A program made the position numbers and the translations under genes. Below, piece by piece: positions 24 to 7,479 of a stretch of 7,479 bases of DNA. Numbering within the stretch: position 1 is the stretch's first letter; each line of letters starts with the position of its first letter. The notes under the pieces are model-generated. The model was not told where the DNA came from and ran no database searches. It saw only the letters and a program-made list of their open reading frames with translations. The DNA is taken from NCBI GenBank assembly GCA_042217545.1, contig JBDGSM010000035.1, forward strand, positions 1 to 7,479. Direction: 5' to 3'. The DNA comes from Candidatus Nanohalobium sp. Its GTDB lineage: Archaea > Nanohalarchaeota > Nanosalinia > Nanosalinales > Nanosalinaceae.

Positions 24-115
24 AAGGGCCTTCACTCAGGTTTTCTGCAGATTTTTTAGGTTTCTAGAATAGGTGGAGAATATGGAGGCTTTTTCTCAGG
101 CCTCAGCGTGGTTTT

Positions 116-367
116 TTAGCTGTATGTTTCTTCCAGGTATTCGATGATGTCGTCGCTCTCGTTCATGGTGGTGTCTGTGTTCGGGTCGACGAGTACCGGT
201 ACCTGTGTCTCTCCTGTAAGCTCCTTCGGTTTCGCCCTGTCTCCGTTGGGTTCAACCTGGCGGGCGATGAAGTCTATCTGCATCTCTGTAAGCTTTTTAC
301 GCACCTTTGAGCAGTATGGGCACTGCTCGAACTGGTAAACTTCAAGAAGTTTTTCTGGCTTGCTCAT
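116..367 (-). CDS. Glutaredoxin / GST N-terminal-like thioredoxin-fold protein
   Basis: CPYC active site, cis-Pro motif 'QVPVLVD' and the 'MNESDDIIEYL' tail typical of GST_N/glutaredoxin proteins. ATG at 367; GTG at 373 is an alternative start. Confidence 0.88.
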   Translation of the reverse strand: MSKPEKLLEVYQFEQCPYCSKVRKKLTEMQIDFIARQVEPNGDRAKPKELTGETQVPVLVDPNTDTTMNESDDIIEYLEETYS

Positions 368-413
368 GGCCACGAGAAAAGTTTCAGGTCCCCAAAGGTT
401 TTAATCCTGGCAG

Positions 414-851
414 TTACTCTATGGTTCCCCGGGCCTTATCCAGAAGCTCTTTCTGATTCTCATAGGTCAGGAGCGAAGCTGCGTCGTCGTAGTCCAGGAA
501 GAAACCGGTTTCATGCTCGTCATGAGGGTTCTCCGACACATCCACGAACCCTGAATCAGATACTTTGACGATGAAGGCCCTGTACTCTCGCTTAACCTCC
601 TCGCCATCTTCGTCCTCGTACGTCCACTCAAGGGTTTCCCCCATTTCCTCGATGCTTTCAATATCTTCCTCGTCAAGACCTGCTTCTTCACCGAGCTCAA
701 GCTTCACACTCCCGGTGTAGTCATCGTCCTCCAGGTGGCCTTTAGGCATCTCCCAGCCCTCCCAGTTCTTTTTCCGTTTCAGCACCAGGTAGCGCTGGTT
801 CCGCCTCACTTCTTTGTACGCTACGATAACTACGCCTTTTTCAGTTCTCAT
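414..851 (-). CDS. Nudix hydrolase (Ap4A-hydrolase-like)
   Basis: 'WEMPKGHLE...ELGEEAGL' Nudix box, 'YLVLKR' N-terminal strand and 'EH..GFF' C-terminal motif. ATG at 851 lies ~25 nt below a TATA-like CTTAAATA (876-883, - strand); GTG at 860 is an alternative start. Confidence 0.85.
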   Translation of the reverse strand: MRTEKGVVIVAYKEVRRNQRYLVLKRKKNWEGWEMPKGHLEDDDYTGSVKLELGEEAGLDEEDIESIEEMGETLEWTYEDEDGEEVKREYRAFIVKVSDSGFVDVSENPHDEHETGFFLDYDDAASLLTYENQKELLDKARGTIE

Positions 852-875
852 AACTGTCACTTACACCGCTTTTTT

Positions 876-923
876 TATTTAAGCCATCCTCGTCAAAGGC
901 CTCCGAATGAAATGGTTTTTATA
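876..923. promoter_or_regulatory. Divergent archaeal promoters (TATA boxes) for the Nudix gene (-) and oapA (+)
   Basis: CTTAAATA on - at 876-883 and TTTTTATA on + at 916-923. GGTG SD-like sequence at 950-953 before the oapA ATG. Confidence 0.55.
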
Positions 924-958
924 TCTAGTCTCCGGATTTATTATTGAGCGGTGTCAAA

Positions 959-1588
959 ATGATAGATCGGCTCAAAAAGCTTATCAGTAACCTGTTCAGC
1001 GGTTCCGGAAAAGAGGATATAGGCATCGGTATCTACGGTCCTCCTAACGCCGGTAAGTCAACTCTAGCTAACCAGATATCAAAGGACCTGACAGGAGAAG
1101 AGATGAGCAACGTGTCAGAAGTGCCGCACGAAACCAGGGCGGTAGAGAAGAAAGAAAAAGTCACGATAGAGTCCAAAGACGACAGAACACTGGATCTCAA
1201 CCTTCTAGACATGCCAGGGATCTCAACCAACGTCGACTTCAAGGACTTCACAGAACACGGCCTTGAAGAAGAAGAGGCAAAAGGCCGGGCAAAGGAAGCA
1301 ACTAAAGGAATTGTTGAGGCTATCAAGTACTTGGATGATGTCGATGCAACGCTTGTAATCTTTGACTCCACCAAGGATCCTTATACGCAGGTAAACGTTA
1401 CAATCATCGGGAACCTGGAAGCAAAGGATATTCCAATACTGATTCTGGCCAACAAGATAGATAAGGAAGACGCGGAACCGGAGCGCGTACGTGATGCGTT
1501 CCCACAGCATCCTGTGCTTGAAATCTCCGCTAAAGAAGGAGAAAATATCGACAAACTTTATGAGGAAATAATAGAAAGGTTAACGTAA
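959..1588 (+). CDS. oapA: Era-like small GTPase OapA (ArvA)
   Basis: G1 GPPNAGKS, G2 PHET, G3 DMPG, G4 NKID and G5 SAK. 'IGIYGPPNAGK', 'EATKG..EAIK.L' and 'DPYTQVNVTIIGNLEA' are OapA-family signatures. N-terminal amphipathic helix MIDRLKKLISNLF. ATG 959 preferred over TTG 944. Confidence 0.92.
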   Translation: MIDRLKKLISNLFSGSGKEDIGIGIYGPPNAGKSTLANQISKDLTGEEMSNVSEVPHETRAVEKKEKVTIESKDDRTLDLNLLDMPGISTNVDFKDFTEHGLEEEEAKGRAKEATKGIVEAIKYLDDVDATLVIFDSTKDPYTQVNVTIIGNLEAKDIPILILANKIDKEDAEPERVRDAFPQHPVLEISAKEGENIDKLYEEIIERLT

Positions 1589-1977
1589 TGGCAGAGGACG
1601 GAGTTACCATAGAGTTTCTATCAAAAGAGAAGCTTACAGAACAGGAGTTTAGCAAGAAGCTGGATCTGGTCCTGGAAAAAGTCCAGGACAACGCAGTACT
1701 CGTCCTCGAAGAGGCCTGGACACCCGATGAGAAAAGTCAGTTGATCCAGAGCTCGATGGAACAGGTAGACGAAGATTTCCCAGGAGTAGAGTTCCTGGGC
1801 CTTGACGCAGGAACATCACGCCTTGACAGGGCGAAAAGACTTTTCTACGACAAACTACTTGACCAGGAGTACAGGAGAGGCCTTACAATCGTAGGTAACT
1901 CCAGGGTAATGGAGAAAATCAAAGAGGAGAAAGACACGGTATCGTTCCTCGCAAAACTCGAAGACGAAAGTAACTGA
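1588..1977 (+). CDS. oapB: OapB / ArvB (DUF2073 family)
   Basis: TAATG overlap with oapA. Motifs 'VLVLEEAWTPDEKSQLI..SM..V.EDFPGVE' and 'GLTIVG' match DUF2073, in the expected oapA-oapB-oapC order. Confidence 0.88.
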   Translation: MAEDGVTIEFLSKEKLTEQEFSKKLDLVLEKVQDNAVLVLEEAWTPDEKSQLIQSSMEQVDEDFPGVEFLGLDAGTSRLDRAKRLFYDKLLDQEYRRGLTIVGNSRVMEKIKEEKDTVSFLAKLEDESN

Positions 1978-1982
1978 GGTGA
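1976..1982 (+). promoter_or_regulatory. Shine-Dalgarno sequence for oapC
   Basis: GAGGTGA, the archaeal consensus SD, overlapping the oapB stop codon. Confidence 0.7.
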
Positions 1983-1989
1983 ACTTCTT

Positions 1990-2376
1990 ATCCCACACCG
2001 TTGCATGAACTGTGGAAGAACCTACGAGGACGACTCCGACGAACTGATAGATGGATGTGAATGCGGATCATCCCTCTTCATGTACGAGAAAGAGGAGTCC
2101 ATGGGCGAGGAAGAACTGGAGAAAGAGAGAGCTGAAGTCAAGACAGATATAGAAACAATGATCGCCGAGGGAAGCGAGGAAAAAGGCAACATCAGACTGG
2201 AGTTCGACCTGGACTCCATCAGCGTAGAGGAGGAAGGAGTCTACAACATCAACGTCTCACGCCTCCTCGAGGAAATGCCACTTGTAATCGAGAAATCCGA
2301 AGGAGTATACCATATCCACCTGCCCTCCGCGTTCGACCCTGGAAGCTCCGAAGTCCAGATAGAAGACCTCGAATGA
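1990..2376 (+). CDS. oapC: OapC / ArvC Zn-ribbon protein (DUF2072-like), probable non-canonical ATC start
   Basis: The conserved N-terminus (M)PHRCMNCG...GCECGS lies upstream of the ORF-track ATG at 2005. C-terminal 'SISVEEEGVYNINV..L' and 'EGVYHIHLPS' motifs. SD GAGGTGA at 1976-1982 is 7 nt before ATC at 1990. Confidence 0.85.
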   Translation: MPHRCMNCGRTYEDDSDELIDGCECGSSLFMYEKEESMGEEELEKERAEVKTDIETMIAEGSEEKGNIRLEFDLDSISVEEEGVYNINVSRLLEEMPLVIEKSEGVYHIHLPSAFDPGSSEVQIEDLE

Positions 2377-2418
2377 AAAAACAGATAAAATTTAAATGGT
2401 CGCTGAGAATAACTTGTT

Positions 2419-2709
2419 ATGCCAGAAGACGAAGAAGGCGACAAAGACGACAATTCAGAGCCAGAGAAGGACAAATTCGGTCTACCTAAGCTATCCACGG
2501 AAGCCGAAATGGGCCTTTCAATGACACTGTTCGTGTCAGGCCTCATGATGGTGATATCGGTCTTCTACTTCCACCACCCACCTGAGGTCATGCAGGCCTA
2601 CGTAGGACTGCTACTGATAGGTACAGCATACCTGTTCTCAACCGAGGCGGTAAGGGAACTCAACGAGAAAGATCACTTCCTCGCAAAGAGATTAATGAAG
2701 AGAGAGTAA
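2419..2709 (+). CDS. Small membrane protein with two predicted TM helices, hypothetical
   Basis: Acidic N-terminus and two hydrophobic stretches (MGLSMTLFVSGLMMVISVFYF; AYVGLLLIGTAYLFS). TTTAAA at 2391-2396 is ~23 nt upstream, consistent with a leaderless transcript. Confidence 0.75.
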   Translation: MPEDEEGDKDDNSEPEKDKFGLPKLSTEAEMGLSMTLFVSGLMMVISVFYFHHPPEVMQAYVGLLLIGTAYLFSTEAVRELNEKDHFLAKRLMKRE

Positions 2710-2758
2710 CGAAAAACAGGCACCAAAAATAAAACTTTTTACTCCCTCAAAGTATTTT

Positions 2759-3037
2759 ATGTCCGGCAAGGAAGTAGACCTAGATTTCAGGTTTGACAAT
2801 GAAGAACTCGCCAATTTCCTGGAAAACTTCTCCGAGAAAGTCAGAGAAGGCAAAGTAGGCCTCAGTTTCAGGGGAAAAGAAGAAGTGGAAATAGAACCGA
2901 CAGAAGATGCGGAACTCGACATGGATTTCTTCCAGGAAGATGACCACAGAAGACTGGAGCTCAACATCACGCTAAAAGAAGAAGTTGAGACAACTGAGCA
3001 GGGAAGACAGAGGATAAGCGTAGAAGTAATAAAGTAA
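2759..3037 (+). CDS. Amphi-Trp domain-like protein
   Basis: Pattern 'EELANFLENFSEKVREGKVGL...EVEIEP...ELDMDF..E....LELNITL' follows the amphi-Trp (TIGR04354-type) layout, but the terminal Trp position is Leu. Confidence 0.65.
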   Translation: MSGKEVDLDFRFDNEELANFLENFSEKVREGKVGLSFRGKEEVEIEPTEDAELDMDFFQEDDHRRLELNITLKEEVETTEQGRQRISVEVIK

Positions 3038-3066
3038 AAAGCAAGCCTCCAAGTCCGAGGCCTTTC

Positions 3067-3540
3067 CTAGTTACCGAAGCTCTCCAGGATCTTAATCATA
3101 CGGTCGTTCTGCTCGATAATCCTATCCAGTTTATCCTCTAAACCAGAGGTATCGCCGGAAAGACCTTCAGAAGAATTAACGCCAGCATTTCCGCTCTGAG
3201 AGGCCTCTACCTCGTTTCTATCATTTACCTGGTTCTTTGACTGACTTGAAACCTGCTGGCCTCTTTCACGGGTCTGCCTGGTTCTCTGGCTTTTTCCAGA
3301 TCTCTGCTGCCGCTGCTTCGAAGGTGCTTCAGGCCTCAAACCGTCTTCCTCCAGGACCTCGATAGGCGTATCATCGCCGTCCTCCTCTTCCTCCACATCA
3401 TTGTCCTGCGCGGCCTCCCTCAGAGTATCAAAGTTTCCACCGTTACCTGGAGAACTGCTTTCCCCGGAATCCGAGGCCTCTGAGTCCTCATCGCTGTTTT
3501 CCTCTCTTATAGAATCCTTCACGTTGTCATAGTACCCCAT
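3067..3540 (-). CDS. Acidic, intrinsically disordered protein with C-terminal coiled-coil, hypothetical
   Basis: Open 157-aa frame, SD GAAGGTGA 5 nt upstream, 14-bp overlap with the upstream gene. D/E/S/G/Q-rich linker and C-terminal helix 'LEDKLDRIIEQNDRMIKILESF'. Confidence 0.8.
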   Translation of the reverse strand: MGYYDNVKDSIREENSDEDSEASDSGESSSPGNGGNFDTLREAAQDNDVEEEEDGDDTPIEVLEEDGLRPEAPSKQRQQRSGKSQRTRQTRERGQQVSSQSKNQVNDRNEVEASQSGNAGVNSSEGLSGDTSGLEDKLDRIIEQNDRMIKILESFGN

Positions 3541-3892
3541 TCATGTCACCTTCATCCTTCAACTCGGACCTGATGTCCTTAAGTATACTTTTGATCTGCT
3601 TGTTCTGCCTGTGAATATCCTCAAGGCTTACATCACCACTACTGCTTCCTGAACGTGAAGATCTGGAGCTACCGGAGGAGGAACTGCTTCCTGAACCCAT
3701 TCCAGGCAGCATACCCGAAGTATCCTGCTCGGAAGAACCAGAATCGCTGGAATCGCCGCCTGTCAAACGTGCCTCGGCCTCATCCCTCAGGTTCCCGGCT
3801 TCCGCTTCCCCGTTTTCATCAGGTACCGAAAGAGTTACCTCTTCAGTATTCTCATCATCGTCTTTTCCATCTCCACGATCGAAAAAGCCCAT
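3527..3892 (-). CDS. Acidic, Ser/Gly-rich disordered protein with C-terminal coiled-coil, hypothetical
   Basis: ATG at 3892 lies ~23 nt below TTTTATTT (3915-3922, - strand). N-terminus MGFFDR; C-terminal helix 'LEDIHRQNKQIKSILKDIRSELK'. Confidence 0.8.
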   Translation of the reverse strand: MGFFDRGDGKDDDENTEEVTLSVPDENGEAEAGNLRDEAEARLTGGDSSDSGSSEQDTSGMLPGMGSGSSSSSGSSRSSRSGSSSGDVSLEDIHRQNKQIKSILKDIRSELKDEGDMNGVL

Positions 3893-3912
3893 CACATAAG
3901 ATTGGTCAGGCC

Positions 3913-3923
3913 CTAAATAAAAG
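3913..3923. promoter_or_regulatory. Single AT block that may act as a bidirectional TATA element
   Basis: TAAATAAAA (3914-3922) is ~23-25 nt from both divergent ATGs (3892 on -, 3947 on +). Confidence 0.45.
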
Positions 3924-3946
3924 GTTTCACCGGGAAAAAGACAAAC

Positions 3947-4426
3947 ATGGAGATAAACGTCAAACCCACGGAAAAAATCCAGCTCCTCAAAGAAGAGATC
4001 GAGAGAAGAGAAGGAAACGCAGAAATCAAGGACGGAGAAATAATAGTAGAAGCAGAAGACACGGAGTTCCTCGAAAAAATCCCCGGCATCAAAGAATACA
4101 CGGCAGAAGGAGAAACCCGGGAAGGCCTCAAGGGAAGACCGGTCCAGGAACAGGCCTACATCAGGATCGAATCAAGAAGGGACGCTGTAAAGGCCCTTCT
4201 AGCCACGATGGACGGCTACAACCTTGTGGTCCTGAACTCGGGACGTGAATGGGACCTGAGAAAACTGAAGGAGTACAACCCGGATATCAAACACCTGAAG
4301 CAGGACGAACCTGTAGAGTTCCTGGACGTGGAGAAAGCGGTCGGAGAAATAGAAGGCCTCGAAGAAGTGGAGATTGAGGTCTCTGAGGAAGAAGTTGAAC
4401 TTGCCTACCGCGAGATGCTTACATAG
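3947..4426 (+). CDS. Hypothetical protein (159 aa, acidic, globular-looking)
   Basis: Open frame with host-like acidic composition and codon usage. No family recognised. Confidence 0.8.
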   Translation: MEINVKPTEKIQLLKEEIERREGNAEIKDGEIIVEAEDTEFLEKIPGIKEYTAEGETREGLKGRPVQEQAYIRIESRRDAVKALLATMDGYNLVVLNSGREWDLRKLKEYNPDIKHLKQDEPVEFLDVEKAVGEIEGLEEVEIEVSEEEVELAYREMLT

Positions 4427-4507
4427 ATGGAACTTCTCAGGAACTATAAAACCGCATTAGATCAAAAACTTAAAACTAATTCACCCCCCTTATACTTAGT
4501 GGTAGTT

Positions 4508-4813
4508 ATGGAAAAGGACGTAGATTTCGACCGCGTCGAATACGCAACCAACAGAAAGCTTGAGAACGATGAAGGAGAGGAGACCGGACATATCAAGATG
4601 TTCAGTTACGACAAAGAAATCTTCTTCCTCGACATGAAATGTCCATACTGCGGAGAAGAGTTCGAAAAGCACGACGTGGAACTCGGATCAAGGCCATGGT
4701 GGATCGAATGCCCTGAATGCACACGTTCAACAAACGTCTACAGGATCAAAGACAAAGAAGAAAGAGAACAGGGCCCTGACGACGAAGAACTGCCAGACGA
4801 CGTCGACGCATAA
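4508..4813 (+). CDS. Zn-ribbon protein, hypothetical
   Basis: CPYC...CPEC pair. The true start is probably ATG 4508 (MEKDVDF), because 4427-4507 is AT-rich, non-acidic and contains TTAAAA at 4470-4475. Confidence 0.78.
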   Translation: MEKDVDFDRVEYATNRKLENDEGEETGHIKMFSYDKEIFFLDMKCPYCGEEFEKHDVELGSRPWWIECPECTRSTNVYRIKDKEEREQGPDDEELPDDVDA

Positions 4814-4828
4814 ACAGAAAGGTTTTCT

Positions 4829-5266
4829 ATGAACCAGGACGACCGCACTAAACTTGTAGAGAAAGCGGAGGAAGCTATGCAGAACTCCTACAGGCCTGAT
4901 AGAGGAACAAAAGTCGGGGCCGCAGTCATGACACCAGAAGGAAAGGTTTTCGGAGGCTGCGTGGTCAAGACCGCGAACGAAGGCATGGGAACCTGCGCAG
5001 AAAGATGCGCGATCTACAACGCAGTAGCACACGGAGAACAGTTCTTCACCGCGGTCGCCATAACATCAGAAAAAGACACTTTCTTCAAACCGTGCGGCAT
5101 GTGCATGCAGCTCCTCAACGAGTTCGCACAGCACAGAGAGGAAAACGACATGGATATAGTCATGGCCAACGGCGGAGAGACGGAAACAGTCAAGCTCCAC
5201 GACCTGATACCAGAGACATACGGACCGGAACAGAAATACGAAGATCCCAAGTACGGGACAGACTAG
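4829..5266 (+). CDS. cdd: Cytidine deaminase-family (homotetrameric, 3-Cys Zn) enzyme, divergent
   Basis: 'VGAAV', 'CAERCAI' (C-A-E catalytic motif), 'PCGMCMQLLNEF' and C-terminal 'L.DLIP..Y'. Substrate-binding motifs deviate from the family consensus. Confidence 0.8.
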   Translation: MNQDDRTKLVEKAEEAMQNSYRPDRGTKVGAAVMTPEGKVFGGCVVKTANEGMGTCAERCAIYNAVAHGEQFFTAVAITSEKDTFFKPCGMCMQLLNEFAQHREENDMDIVMANGGETETVKLHDLIPETYGPEQKYEDPKYGTD

Positions 5267-5275
5267 AAAAAGGCC

Positions 5276-6244
5276 TCAGAACAAAATTTCCTGCTGCTGA
5301 ACATGTTTTCTTTCCTCATCAAGAAGTTCCTCCACTTTCTCAGCCAGTCTCTCACCGTATTCTTCTAGATCATCTATTTCTGAAACTGTAAGGCCTGTAC
5401 CCTTCGACTTCGACAACGGCTTACCTTCTTCATCAGCGATCATCGGCGCCAGAAAATAAGCAGGTGTCTCACCGGTAGCCAGCTTAGTGATTTTCGCCAC
5501 TTTCACGATCTTAGACGTCTTCTGCTCCTTCGCCGCATCCCTGTAATCGCCGCCGAACACGTGAACAGAAACATCTCTACTAGGATCACGCACCGGATCC
5601 ACCAGATAATACACACCTATTTTCCCATCAAGCTGGCCGCGCGAGAAACCCTCACCACAGGCCTTATTCCGGCAACTCGCGACAAGTTCTCCCGACTCAG
5701 AGCTATAAGGTGCCCCCTTAGCGTGGGAGAAACCACAGTTGTCACAGACGTTCACGACAGGGCTACGATAACGCCTCCTGAAACCACCGCCGAAGATCTC
5801 ATCAAACTCATCCATATTCTCAAGAACGCTAGACAAGGCCTCACGGTAGCCCTCAGAGTCCAGCTCAGATAAAAAATCGGCCTCAACTTCCTCACCGGTA
5901 AAATTTTCCAGGCCGTCCAGGAAAGGCCTTATCTCCTCCACACGATGCTCCGCGACGTTACCATGCTCGTTACATGGACAGTCCCTCTCGAAGAAAAGCC
6001 GCATAACATCGCTGTTTTCAGGCCTGTGGTTCTCGTGTATATGAGCCGACCAGTCCGTATCACAGCAGAAAAGATCTAATTCAAGGCCTAACCTTGAAGC
6101 GATGACAGAAGAATAAGCCAATGTCAACAGATTCCCGACGTGAAGCTCGCCGGAAGGCCTGAAACCTACGGATAAACGCCTACCTGAGGCCTCGAAAACC
6201 TGAAGTTGTTCGAAACTTGAAGTGATTTGGAAGTCTTCTTTCAT
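5276..6244 (-). CDS. Class I lysyl-tRNA synthetase paralog, catalytic domain only
   Basis: HIGH motif 'PSGELHVGN', KMSKS motif 'KPLSKSKG', LysRS1-type 'CPCNEHGNVAEH' segment, Zn insert 'CDNCG...CRNKAC' and 'FGGDY' (GKDH-equivalent). Ends ~40 aa after KMSKS. ATG 6244 preferred over TTG 6265. Confidence 0.8.
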   Translation of the reverse strand: MKEDFQITSSFEQLQVFEASGRRLSVGFRPSGELHVGNLLTLAYSSVIASRLGLELDLFCCDTDWSAHIHENHRPENSDVMRLFFERDCPCNEHGNVAEHRVEEIRPFLDGLENFTGEEVEADFLSELDSEGYREALSSVLENMDEFDEIFGGGFRRRYRSPVVNVCDNCGFSHAKGAPYSSESGELVASCRNKACGEGFSRGQLDGKIGVYYLVDPVRDPSRDVSVHVFGGDYRDAAKEQKTSKIVKVAKITKLATGETPAYFLAPMIADEEGKPLSKSKGTGLTVSEIDDLEEYGERLAEKVEELLDEERKHVQQQEILF

Positions 6245-6267
6245 ACTTCCAGAAAGGTTGTTCAAGA

Positions 6268-6297
6268 TTCAAAACTTTACTCTGCAAACTTTTTGAA
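6268..6297. promoter_or_regulatory. Back-to-back symmetric TATA-like elements
   Basis: TTCAAAA (6268-6274) and TTTTGAA (6291-6297) form an inverted pair. Each reads TTTTGAA on its own strand and sits 24 nt from its ATG (6244 on -, 6321 on +). Confidence 0.55.
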
Positions 6298-6320
6298 CTC
6301 CGGAGCAGAAAATCCTGTCT

Positions 6321-6842
6321 ATGATTAAACACTTCTCTAGCACCAGGAACTCTTATAGAGATGAAATCCTCGAAGTCATGGAGAAAAACAACGAGGAGAC
6401 CACGCCATCTATCCAGGAGATGACAAACAAATGGGTAGCAGAAGAAGAGTTAGGCCTGGAAGATGCGGTCGAAAAGTTCTACGAGGAGAGAACAGATCAA
6501 GTACTTCTTTACCATGAAAAAGGCCTTTTGAAGGGATTTTTCCTCCTCGAGGAAAATGATGAGGATCTGAAAGAGAAGATCCCGCAGTACTGGCCACATA
6601 TCGAAGTAGCCCTCGGAATCGTAAAACAAGAATTTAGAGGAAAAGGAATCGCTCAGAGGCTTTTCGAGGAAACAGAGAAAATAATGAATAAGGAAGGCCT
6701 CGAAAACCTGGTATGGGTAACATCTACAGCAAACAAGGCCTCACAGAACTTTGCCCAGAAGCAGGGACTTGAAGAAGCAACAAAATTTTCTGAAGACAGG
6801 GAAGACGACCAGAAAACAGTTATACTTGCCAAAAAGGTTTGA
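6321..6842 (+). CDS. GNAT-family N-acetyltransferase
   Basis: Acetyl-CoA motif A 'VKQEFRGKGIAQRLF' and motif B 'NKASQNFAQKQGL'. Confidence 0.9.
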   Translation: MIKHFSSTRNSYRDEILEVMEKNNEETTPSIQEMTNKWVAEEELGLEDAVEKFYEERTDQVLLYHEKGLLKGFFLLEENDEDLKEKIPQYWPHIEVALGIVKQEFRGKGIAQRLFEETEKIMNKEGLENLVWVTSTANKASQNFAQKQGLEEATKFSEDREDDQKTVILAKKV

Positions 6843-6904
6843 AAAACTCTTTCTGGAAAGAGGACCGAGGCCTCCGTGTTAAAAAGTTGACAGTCCTTTT
6901 CATT

Positions 6905-7172
6905 TCCTACATCAACACCTTTACGGTTGAGATGTGTACGGTAGCCCAGAAAAGCTTGGCGGCTGGCTGGGCTATAACCACTTATTTCTGATAAAGTTGC
7001 ATTCAAGACCAGAATTTACGCTGGTATATAACAGTTGAGGCCTCAAACCCTAGACGGTTACTGGGAGGCGTTTGTGAGGCGCACTCCCGGAATACCAACT
7101 CAGGAAAGCCCTTCAAGGCTTTCTCGGAGCACAGGGGTTTGTTGATCCCAGCTCCTAATGAGTTCCTACTTT
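6905..7172 (+). ncRNA. Candidate structured non-coding RNA(s), unidentified
   Basis: At least six stems, including a nested multibranch domain. G-U pairs consistently favour the + strand. No credible ORF, TATA-like elements at 6879 and 7025, and a T-tract at 7170-7173. Confidence 0.5.
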
Positions 7173-7229
7173 TACCACAGAAAACTAACTTCAGAAAATC
7201 AAAACCAAAGGCCTTCCTATAGCCCACCA

Positions 7230-7238
7230 TATTTAACA
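7230..7238 (+). promoter_or_regulatory. TATA box of the tRNA gene
   Basis: TATTTAAC ~30 nt upstream of the mature tRNA 5' end. Confidence 0.6.
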
Positions 7239-7267
7239 GTTAACGCCACCACCAAACTTACCTACAG

Positions 7268-7479
7268 GCCTCGATAGCTCAGCCTGGCTAGAGCAGCTCC
7301 CTTGTAACAACTGGTTACCGCATCTTCCGCACAGCGGAAGCATGCTGAAAGCAGGCCTTCAAAAGTGAAGCCTGCGGCGCTCAGGTTGGCACGCAAAGAG
7401 CCATTCTATGAATGGCTCACGTAGAACGTGTCAAACGCAAGATAGGAGCAGGTCGAGGGTTCAAATCCCTCTCGGGGCT
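7268..7479 (+). tRNA. tRNA-Thr(UGU) with intron at canonical position 37/38 (exons 7268-7306 and 7444-7479)
   Basis: Acceptor stem GCCTCGA/TCGGGGC with U73 discriminator; D-arm GCTC/GAGC; anticodon stem GCTCC/GGAGC with loop CT-TGT-A^A; T-arm GAGGG-TTCAAAT-CCCTC. Confidence 0.95.
7307..7443 (+). other. 137-nt archaeal tRNA intron with bulge-helix-bulge splice motif
   Basis: Central helix CTTG(7301-7304)/CAAG(7438-7441), 3-nt bulges TA^A (7305-7307) and AT^A (7442-7444), closed by C7308-G7437. Confidence 0.9.

Follow-up and report, generated by a model that had tools for sequence, protein, structure and literature searches.

AGGCCT is a highly iterated palindrome of a nanohaloarchaeal genome, maintained near saturation by a pressure on DNA that switches between close relatives

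Contig JBDGSM010000035.1 (C29 in our numbering) of the Candidatus Nanohalobium sp. assembly GCA_042217545.1, from a salt-loving, symbiotic archaeon of very small size, is a stretch of 7,479 nucleotides, hereafter the window, in which the palindromic hexamer AGGCCT occurs 33 times. The window is a sample of a pattern that runs through the entire genome, and the abundance of AGGCCT there reflects a nearly saturating pressure at the level of DNA, which is on or off between close relatives. The data require that this pressure be sequence-specific and roughly uniform, with a heritable on/off switch. As to its form we can be only tentative: a directional, genome-wide drive of biased conversion or repair, acting on DNA and not on protein or RNA, is the explanation that we put forward, and it is weighed below against several others.

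An earlier note, made from the window sequence by itself, had reported 33 exact copies between positions 98 and 7358 and proposed that AGGCCT is a genome signature like HIP1, the highly iterated palindrome of cyanobacteria. Our recount reproduced every copy, while 200 dinucleotide-preserving shuffles of the window gave a mean of 2.15 copies and a maximum of 6, with none of the 200 reaching 33. On our gene map 24 copies are coding (frames 0, 1 and 2 holding 5, 9 and 10 of them, respectively), and the others comprise six intergenic copies, one at a stop codon, one at the 5' end of a tRNA gene and one in the intron of that gene; the use of differing frames and the copies across the tRNA 5' end and inside the intron were thus as the note had described them.

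The genome to which the window belongs (G000; 1.03 Mb in 82 contigs, 92% complete) contains 3,699 copies, one per 279 bp, and no other hexamer is as common. The note had proposed comparing hexamers with Markov expectations, and under this comparison AGGCCT ranks first of 4,096, with observed/expected ratios (O/E) of 15.1, 13.0 and 5.1 at zero, first and second order, respectively; the runner-up among 6-bp palindromes stands at 2.3-fold, and 58% of all GGCC in the genome lies inside AGGCCT. At maximal order the ratio drops to 1.11, since the excess is already present in the constituent pentamers. Enrichment restricted to the window, a possibility that the note had allowed for, is not what we found, since all 78 of the contigs longer than 3 kb carry the word, at 1.3-5.1 sites per kb. 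The same signal is present in two single-contig genomes, G001 (19.3-fold) and G003 (19.6-fold), and in a separately deposited record of a metagenome-assembled genome (L001). Among sequencing runs, the window was found in contig-level DNA runs of a single study, with no RNA run listed. The sequences flanking the sites are nearly uninformative (0.15 bit at position -1, and no more than that elsewhere), so the element is a bare hexamer and not a piece of a longer repeat, and the gaps between sites are near exponential (mean 273, median 197, standard deviation 259).

To separate the coding from the non-coding signal we used a greedy map of open reading frames, which places 1,012 genes over 88% of G000. 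The density of AGGCCT is 3.47 per kb in coding sequence, where all three frames are used (571, 1065 and 1512 copies), and 4.39 per kb in the remainder. When synonymous codons were shuffled within genes, the proteins being kept, the 3,136 coding sites fell to 585 +/- 18 (30 shuffles), that is, only 19% of coding sites were retained, and shuffling of codon order left 297 +/- 18 (30 shuffles). The enrichment thus survives the codon-shuffle test, and codon or amino-acid bias is insufficient to account for it, as the note had argued. Given that all frames are used, that spacers are richer than genes, and that the sites are lost on synonymous shuffling, the pressure is one on DNA. The competing idea, in which AGGCCT merely follows from how codons or amino acids are used, from some longer family of repeats or from faulty assembly, can draw on the low maximal-order ratio, in which 5-mers already hold the signal, but it is refuted by the spacer density, the shuffles, the bare flanks and the recurrence of the signal in other genomes, and we give it practically no credence.

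How close the pressure comes to saturation can be judged from the places at which AGGCCT could be written with synonymous codons. In G000, G001 and G003 the word occupies 67%, 74% and 73% of these permissive places, versus 8.7% in the AGGCCT-poor relative G011, which corresponds to odds of occupancy raised about 28-fold. The permissive places are themselves more numerous in the rich genomes (15.2-15.6 per 1000 codons versus 9.0 in G011), and the excess is visible in the proteins: the dipeptide RP has an O/E of 1.47-1.58 versus 0.72-0.82 for PR, GL 1.29-1.44 versus about 0.98 for LG, and the tripeptides [EKQ]A[CYSLFW] 1.8-2.0 versus about 0.8 in the reverse order, while the same encoding peptides in G011 stand at 0.83-1.0. 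The pressure therefore distorts protein sequences in an order-specific way. Occupancy in G001 is 0.74-0.76 across four classes of gene conservation and 0.63 in the genes unique to G001, and permissive places are more frequent in the less conserved genes (16.8-17.1 versus 14.3 per 1000 codons). Along genes the metagene profile is flat, with a dip over the first 30 bp and a peak where the word overlaps the stop codon. The 16S genes of three rich genomes, by contrast, hold a single AGGCCT in about 4 kb (a 16S match was obtained in 19 of the 50 genomes of the family), from which it appears that strong RNA constraint resists the pressure.

The one-letter variants of AGGCCT indicate how the word may be read. 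The note had called such variants common, and in G000 this is true of GGGCCT/AGGCCC, at 1.9-fold, but not of the other eight variant classes, which lie at 0.65-1.24-fold. Among the rich genomes, variants at the outer positions have O/E values of 1.2-3.7 versus 0.80-1.24 in G011, the GGGCCT/AGGCCC class accounting for 1.9-3.7 versus 0.80. Variants at positions 2/5 are near neutral (0.88-1.24), and those at positions 3/4 are at or below expectation (0.43-1.11), with AGCCCT/AGGGCT at 0.43-0.65 and AGGTCT at 0.46 in G003. Total GGCC density is 6.2-6.8 per kb in rich genomes versus 1.7 per kb in G011, a 3.7-4-fold difference, while the GGCC classes in which both outer letters are wrong are unchanged relative to G011. 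This pattern suggests a single factor that would be strict about GGCC and more tolerant of changes to the flanking A and T.

A survey of related genomes, which the note had recommended, extends the enrichment beyond the genome of the window and reveals it to be patchy by lineage. Of 50 family genomes in 21 genera, 12 are AGGCCT-rich (about 2-4.7 copies per kb): all three of the window's own genus, four of five in genus g26, all three in g29 and two of six in g2. One genome (G032), with about 0.95 per kb, falls in between, and the remaining genomes have 0.05-0.7 per kb, comparable to the control word TCCGGA. Among 31 relatives, the only rich ones were those of the window's own genus and a single member of a second genus, and in four other families of the order it was found in none of 12 genomes. 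A maximum-likelihood tree of a LysRS-like protein encoded in the window, built from 22 genomes, splits the rich genomes among three clades, each with a poor sister (G038, G053 and genus g28). The starred branches of this tree force at least two changes of AGGCCT state and parsimony needs three; as its backbone is not resolved, the tree is compatible with a single origin and many subsequent losses as well as with several gains. Within the LysRS-like gene two AGGCCT sites are common to all six rich genomes compared, and all six poor genomes have near-cognate hexamers there. The trait thus switches on and off between close relatives, also inside one genus.

Palindromes are also avoided in this family. 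GACGTC is present in 3 copies in G040 and 12 in G041, CTGCAG in 27 copies in G015, and AGGCCT itself is scarce in G018 (55 copies), G017 (73) and G043 (97), three genomes equipped with C5 or N4/N6 methylases. Restriction aimed at AGGCCT or GGCC is probably in circulation within the family. Ordinary restriction pressure is thus at work there, and the AGGCCT excess is a different matter. CTGCAG was also considered as an alternate iterated word, in which one 17-kb locus seemed rich, and was rejected, no genome of the 50 being rich in it.

What form might a pressure with these properties take? We propose, with due reserve, that a cellular factor recognizes AGGCCT, reading the central GGCC most strictly, and would push each near-matching hexamer to AGGCCT wherever coding and RNA constraints allow. 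The factor could be a sequence-specific enzyme that resolves mismatches or recombination heteroduplexes in favor of the strand carrying AGGCCT; it would be encoded by a single dispensable or mobile gene, gained and lost between sister species, and the drive would be independent of a canonical DNA methyltransferase. We infer that conversion or repair, rather than selection for the sites, is the most likely form.

A more specific and rather doubtful version of this proposal is that the enzyme is a methylase-independent "word-writing" activity, dispensable and possibly mobile, that would rewrite near-cognate hexamers of the host and of its resident mobile DNA alike. Such an enzyme would account for the presence of one and the same word in at least three separate clades whose sisters lack it.

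Several considerations weigh against a drive of conversion or repair. The data do not separate it from weak selection of similar strength, and our ranking of it ahead of selection for binding sites is itself a matter of inference. In G011 the hexamers standing where rich genomes have AGGCCT include transversion variants (AGGACT 43, AGGCAT 26), so repair of deaminations cannot by itself explain everything. No enzyme was found among the genes compared and the eight candidates tested. The comparison of gene content covered G001 and G003 in full, G000, and 620 kb (65%) of one poor genome, G011, and it yielded 237 G001 genes with a homologue in G003 but unmatched in the 620 kb, many of them false positives because 35% of G011 lay outside the comparison. 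Pfam annotation of 54 + 84 = 138 of the 237 genes was obtained, and PADLOC, applied to 227 of the 237 (the ten left out span locus borders), returned no restriction, modification, Dnd or Dpd component. The eight candidates, namely RsmB/F, UDG, a 174-aa OGG-like protein, NreA, proteins of unknown function of 244 and 355 aa, an ArsR-type winged helix-turn-helix (wHTH) protein and HxlR, were each rejected as the factor, being present in an AGGCCT-poor congener. NucS/EndoMS, in 46 of the 50 family genomes, and the HhH-GPD glycosylases, in 49 of the 50, do not track the trait; HhH-GPD copies number 2-4 in rich genomes and 0-5 elsewhere, without any pattern.

Also to be set against the drive is a coincidence of sites between genomes that goes beyond what saturation predicts. 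At orthologous positions, 55% of the G001 sites are also AGGCCT in G000 and 36% in G003, versus 19% and 12% for all hexamers, which ranks AGGCCT first of 2,093 hexamers in the comparison with G000 and second of 1,695 in that with G003; in G011, only 2.4% of the G001 sites are AGGCCT. Most of this apparent conservation follows from the fact that permissive places are about 70% saturated. Where the encoded residues are identical, coincidence is 0.84 with G000 and 0.82 with G003, of which independent saturation already predicts 0.71 and 0.75; the probability of a site in the second genome is 0.82-0.84 given one in the first (versus the 0.71-0.75 expected) and 0.39-0.47 given none, an odds ratio of 5-8. 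The residual coincidence could come from site-specific selection or from shared ancestry, and it could also reflect constraint specific to the place.

This residue is what would be expected if the sites were selected as sites, that is, if an abundant AGGCCT-binding protein made each additional site slightly beneficial, whether in nucleoid organization, in segregation, as a Chi-like recombination signal, or as a mark of "self" against a nuclease. We hold selection of this kind to be only a little less likely than the drive. Besides the odds ratio, it is supported by counts in 1-kb bins that are slightly more even than Poisson (variance/mean 0.85-0.94) and by low-frequency power in the distribution of sites, with periodogram peaks at ~75 kb in G001 (p < 0.002) and ~52 kb in G003 (p = 0.03), as judged against a bin-permutation null that destroys all autocorrelation and ignores islands and composition, the periodogram differing in method from that of Xu et al. 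In the accessible text of Xu et al. (2018; PMC5861425), selection and a role in the nucleoid are inferred for HIP1. On the other hand, the low-frequency power could come from islands alone, the near-exponential gaps betray no spacing rule, the sites have no positional preference relative to genes, and sister species in the same brines do without them. The three clade-shared regulators of wHTH type that were tested (ArsR-type, HxlR) are present in poor congeners too, and the depletion of inner and enrichment of outer variants would oblige the proposal to assume graded binding in addition.

The note had suggested, among other causes, a methylation-driven process on a GGCC core, and this fared poorly; the repair-driven process and the protein-binding site that it also named may both still apply. 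In such a methylation model, that of Elhai (2015) for HIP, a methyltransferase would mark GGCC or AGGCCT, and methylation-dependent mismatch repair would create and maintain the sites. C5 methylases (PF00145) occur in one of the 12 rich genomes (G035) and in 14 of the 38 others, N4/N6 methylases (PF01555, E <= 1e-8) in one of the 12 (G048) and in seven of the 38, and Dam-type methylases (PF02086) in none of the 12 and one of the 38; ten of the 12 rich genomes therefore lack all three families, among them the single-contig genomes G001, G003 and G049. Vsr (PF03852) was absent from the four rich genomes searched for it (G000-G003), in which the only strong N6_Mtase match (PF02384) is a type I hsdM of G003, at 349 bits, located in a low-AGGCCT island. 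The deamination products AGGTCT and AGGCTT, moreover, are not depleted in G000 and G001. Single-molecule real-time (SMRT) sequencing of one cultivated nanohaloarchaeon detected, according to the accessible parts of the reports, only GDGcHC methylation (PMC10266531, PMC11001535); that organism may not be AGGCCT-rich, and SMRT detects 5-methylcytosine (m5C) poorly. A canonical DNA methylase is thus not needed for the AGGCCT excess, although a methylase of some novel family may be involved. In the model's favor are the bias of deviants to the first and last letters, which is also what the available text of Elhai (2015; PMC4390886) reports for HIP1, and the apparent circulation of AGGCCT/GGCC restriction in the family, with AGGCCT depleted in the methylase-bearing G018, G017 and G043. 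On balance we consider methylation an improbable cause.

Exceptions to the uniform density of AGGCCT were also informative, in that the stretches low in AGGCCT correspond to DNA that was probably acquired, namely the island of G003 with hsdM and, in G001, the CRISPR region and a 5.5-kb metabolic cluster. The most AGGCCT-poor stretch of G003, at positions 670,000-685,000, has 11 sites per 10 kb versus a mean of 39.5, has a GC content of 0.40-0.42, carries hsdM, and is probably a recent island. In G001, positions 890,529-896,064 (L061:10529-16064) comprise 5.5 kb that adjoin a tRNA gene and have no AGGCCT; PLP enzymes, ParA-like and CobW-like NTPases and NikR are encoded there, and the stretch looks like a newly gained cluster of metal-related genes.

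The CRISPR array of G001, at positions 798,758-800,200 (L056/L057), has 22 repeats of 30 nt and 21 spacers, of which two contain AGGCCT versus 0.16 expected (P = 0.012), a hint that the DNA invading this clade is AGGCCT-rich as well. A third spacer forms AGGCCT together with the end of the repeat. The spacers had no protospacer in a phage collection, and the one spacer searched in IMG/VR had no match there. A scan of IMG/VR for three AGGCCT close together gave, among the matches listed, mostly tandem repeats and one low-GC locus family. The viral contigs L184, L223 and L258 of IMG/VR (GC 0.36) have in common a locus over which AGGCCT is scattered in the same pattern, one instance being 13 sites in 5.5 kb. 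AGGCCT in spacers derived from invaders is also what selection for binding sites would predict, as mimicry of a self-mark.

Islands without AGGCCT and AGGCCT-rich incoming DNA, as sampled by CRISPR, would equally be expected of a molecular drive through biased DNA uptake, in which a surface receptor prefers AGGCCT-bearing fragments from kin and recombination spreads the word. Such a drive would likewise account for a signature that is genome-wide, frame-independent and distorting of the proteome, and the clade-shared genes include a candidate SNase of secreted type and a lamin-tail-domain protein. However, a search for the ComEC DNA channel (PF03772), which as a control gave matches in 10 of 14 reference genomes, had no match in any of the 50 genomes of the family, a 6-bp palindrome offers little discrimination, and we know of no sequence-specific DNA uptake in archaea; we hold out little hope for this explanation.

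Returning to the window, the 33 sites are located as follows, given as coordinates without strand. The intergenic copies lie at 98..103, downstream of a glutaredoxin-like gene; at 897..902, in the divergent spacer between a NUDIX gene and oapA; at 3058..3063, in a convergent spacer; and at 6868..6873, 7038..7043 and 7209..7214. These six agree with the spacer sites of the earlier note, while a seventh that it had counted, at 5271..5276 in a convergent spacer, overlaps with its last base the stop codon of the LysRS-like gene on the minus strand. The OapB gene has sites at 1712..1717 (frame 1) and 1878..1883 (frame 2), a 96-aa open reading frame (ORF) at 2538..2543 (frame 2) and 2594..2599 (frame 1), and an Amphi-Trp ORF at 2857..2862 (frame 2). 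Three sites fall in a 157-aa ORF on the minus strand, at 3201..3206 (frame 1), 3331..3336 (frame 0) and 3474..3479 (frame 1), and three in a 159-aa ORF, at 4123..4128 (frame 2), 4152..4157 (frame 1) and 4354..4359 (frame 2). The cytidine deaminase gene carries one at 4892..4897 (frame 0). Eight are in the class-I LysRS-like gene on the minus strand, at 5391..5396 (frame 2), 5659..5664 (frame 1), 5836..5841 (frame 1), 5924..5929 (frame 0), 6020..6025 (frame 0), 6084..6089 (frame 2), 6155..6160 (frame 0) and 6187..6192 (frame 1), and four in a GNAT acetyltransferase gene, at 6452..6457, 6521..6526 and 6695..6700 (all frame 2) and 6736..6741 (frame 1). Of the two sites associated with the tRNA, that at 7266..7271 consists of the leader bases AG and the first four bases (GCCT) of tRNA-Thr(UGU), and that at 7353..7358 lies inside the intron, which is roughly 135-140 nt long. 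The similar tRNA of the poor relative G011 has the same GCCTCGA start, but there it is preceded by AC.

The tRNA-Thr(UGU) gene itself occupies positions 7268-7479, with its intron after the anticodon loop, and reaches the last base of the window. It was missed both by ARAGORN and by Rfam at the gathering threshold, and was read by eye and by comparison. The gene is also present in G001, and the G011 counterpart has 5 mismatches and an anticodon loop of CGU type, and is uninterrupted at the corresponding position. The 425 bp that separate the GNAT gene from the tRNA gene (6843-7267) contain doubtful ORFs only and three AGGCCT sites, have no Rfam match, and may hold an unannotated RNA or a promoter region.

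Positions 944-2376 encode oapA (a GTPase), oapB and oapC in a row, the trio associated with replication origins in haloarchaea. The contig may accordingly adjoin a replication origin; no Orc1/Cdc6 gene is present on its 7.5 kb. The LysRS-like protein, 329 aa of class I encoded on the minus strand at 5276-6265, has a weak tRNA-synt_1f match. No more than 24 of the 50 family genomes were found to encode it, and the single-contig congener G001 is not among them, so that the protein probably represents an accessory paralogue, distinct from the housekeeping LysRS.

Our literature search, which did not extend to supplementary files, found no description of AGGCCT abundance in nanohaloarchaea, and its matches for highly iterated palindromes in archaea were only cyanobacterial or incidental. 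New here are the map of the family with its contrast within a genus, the tree with three rich clades, the saturation test, the bias to the outer letters, the absence of methylases, and the set of rejected candidates. The trait sits in genomes of 1 Mb with about 1,000 genes; given the strength of the signal, the small genomes, the lack of canonical methylases and the switching inside one genus, its cause should be findable. Comparing a dozen such genomes should leave a handful of candidate genes, and relatives of the clade can be grown in co-culture. In practical terms, AGGCCT biases the statistics of codon usage, dipeptides and k-mers, with consequences for binning and for the detection of horizontal transfer, and it provides a simple marker of DNA long resident in rich cells.

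Among known systems in which a short word departs from its expected frequency, restriction-site avoidance shares with AGGCCT a short palindrome, lineage specificity and a tie to mobile genes, and is visible in the same family. Its sign is opposite, however, as AGGCCT is enriched about 15-fold and the rich genomes are mostly without methylases. Chi, too, is an over-represented short word, marking the cell's own DNA for a recombination nuclease. It is short in Bacillus and longer in E. coli, asymmetric, co-oriented with replication and far more weakly enriched, whereas AGGCCT, being palindromic, cannot show strand skew, and we are aware of no archaeal equivalent of Chi or of a nuclease that reads one. 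Genes resembling Mre11 and Rad50 do occur.

The uptake sequences of the Pasteurellaceae (USS) and Neisseriaceae (DUS) resemble AGGCCT in that thousands of copies of a short word lie in genes and spacers, the encoded peptides are affected, and the word is rarer in newly acquired DNA. They are explained by molecular drive and not by a benefit of each site, and USS are reported to be likewise genome-wide, frame-independent and distorting of the proteome. These words are 9-12 bp long, are not palindromic and need competence machinery, in contrast to a palindromic 6-mer in a family where ComEC is missing; to our knowledge, natural competence has not been described for nanohaloarchaea of this group.

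Closer in mechanism to the proposed drive of conversion or repair are systems of very-short-patch (VSP) repair. Dcm/Vsr of E. coli restores a short palindrome in a sequence-specific manner and can raise its frequency, and in Methanothermobacter a GGCC methylase is accompanied by the T/G glycosylase Mig.MthI, an archaeal example with a GGCC core that we count in favor of the methylation model. The known effects of such repair on word frequency are modest and both examples need an m5C methylase; G000-G003 differ from both in that neither an m5C methylase nor Vsr was found in them, and the number of HhH-GPD paralogues does not follow the trait.

Highly iterated palindromes have been a cyanobacterial puzzle since the 1990s, for which methyltransferases and nucleoid structure are the leading models. 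If a "word-writing" enzyme were indeed responsible for AGGCCT, it would be the first molecular handle on the origin of such palindromes in any organism. The proposal of the earlier note that AGGCCT is a HIP1-like signature in an archaeon is upheld by the comparison. As far as the accessible text of the two principal studies goes, HIP1 (GCGATCGC) is likewise a GC-rich palindrome, over-represented 15-300-fold where AGGCCT is 15-20-fold (PMC4390886, PMC5861425); both words occur in genes in all frames and in spacers, independently of coding, both are patchy between related lineages, in both the one-letter deviants concentrate at the outer letters (PMC4390886), and sites of both coincide between genomes (PMC5861425). 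The same text of Elhai (2015) describes alternate highly iterated palindromes in cyanobacteria and a word- or core-specific methyltransferase wherever a HIP word is frequent (PMC4390886), and that of Xu, Lawrence and Durand (2018) describes conservation of HIP1 beyond neutral expectation and a periodicity of 10-90 kb (PMC5861425). AGGCCT differs in having six letters rather than eight, in its host, a DPANN archaeon, in the lack of a cognate methyltransferase in ten of the 12 rich genomes, in switching inside a single genus, and in that most of its coincidence is explained by saturation of permissive places. With about 70% of those places filled and protein sequences bent to accommodate it, the case of AGGCCT is as strong as that of HIP1.

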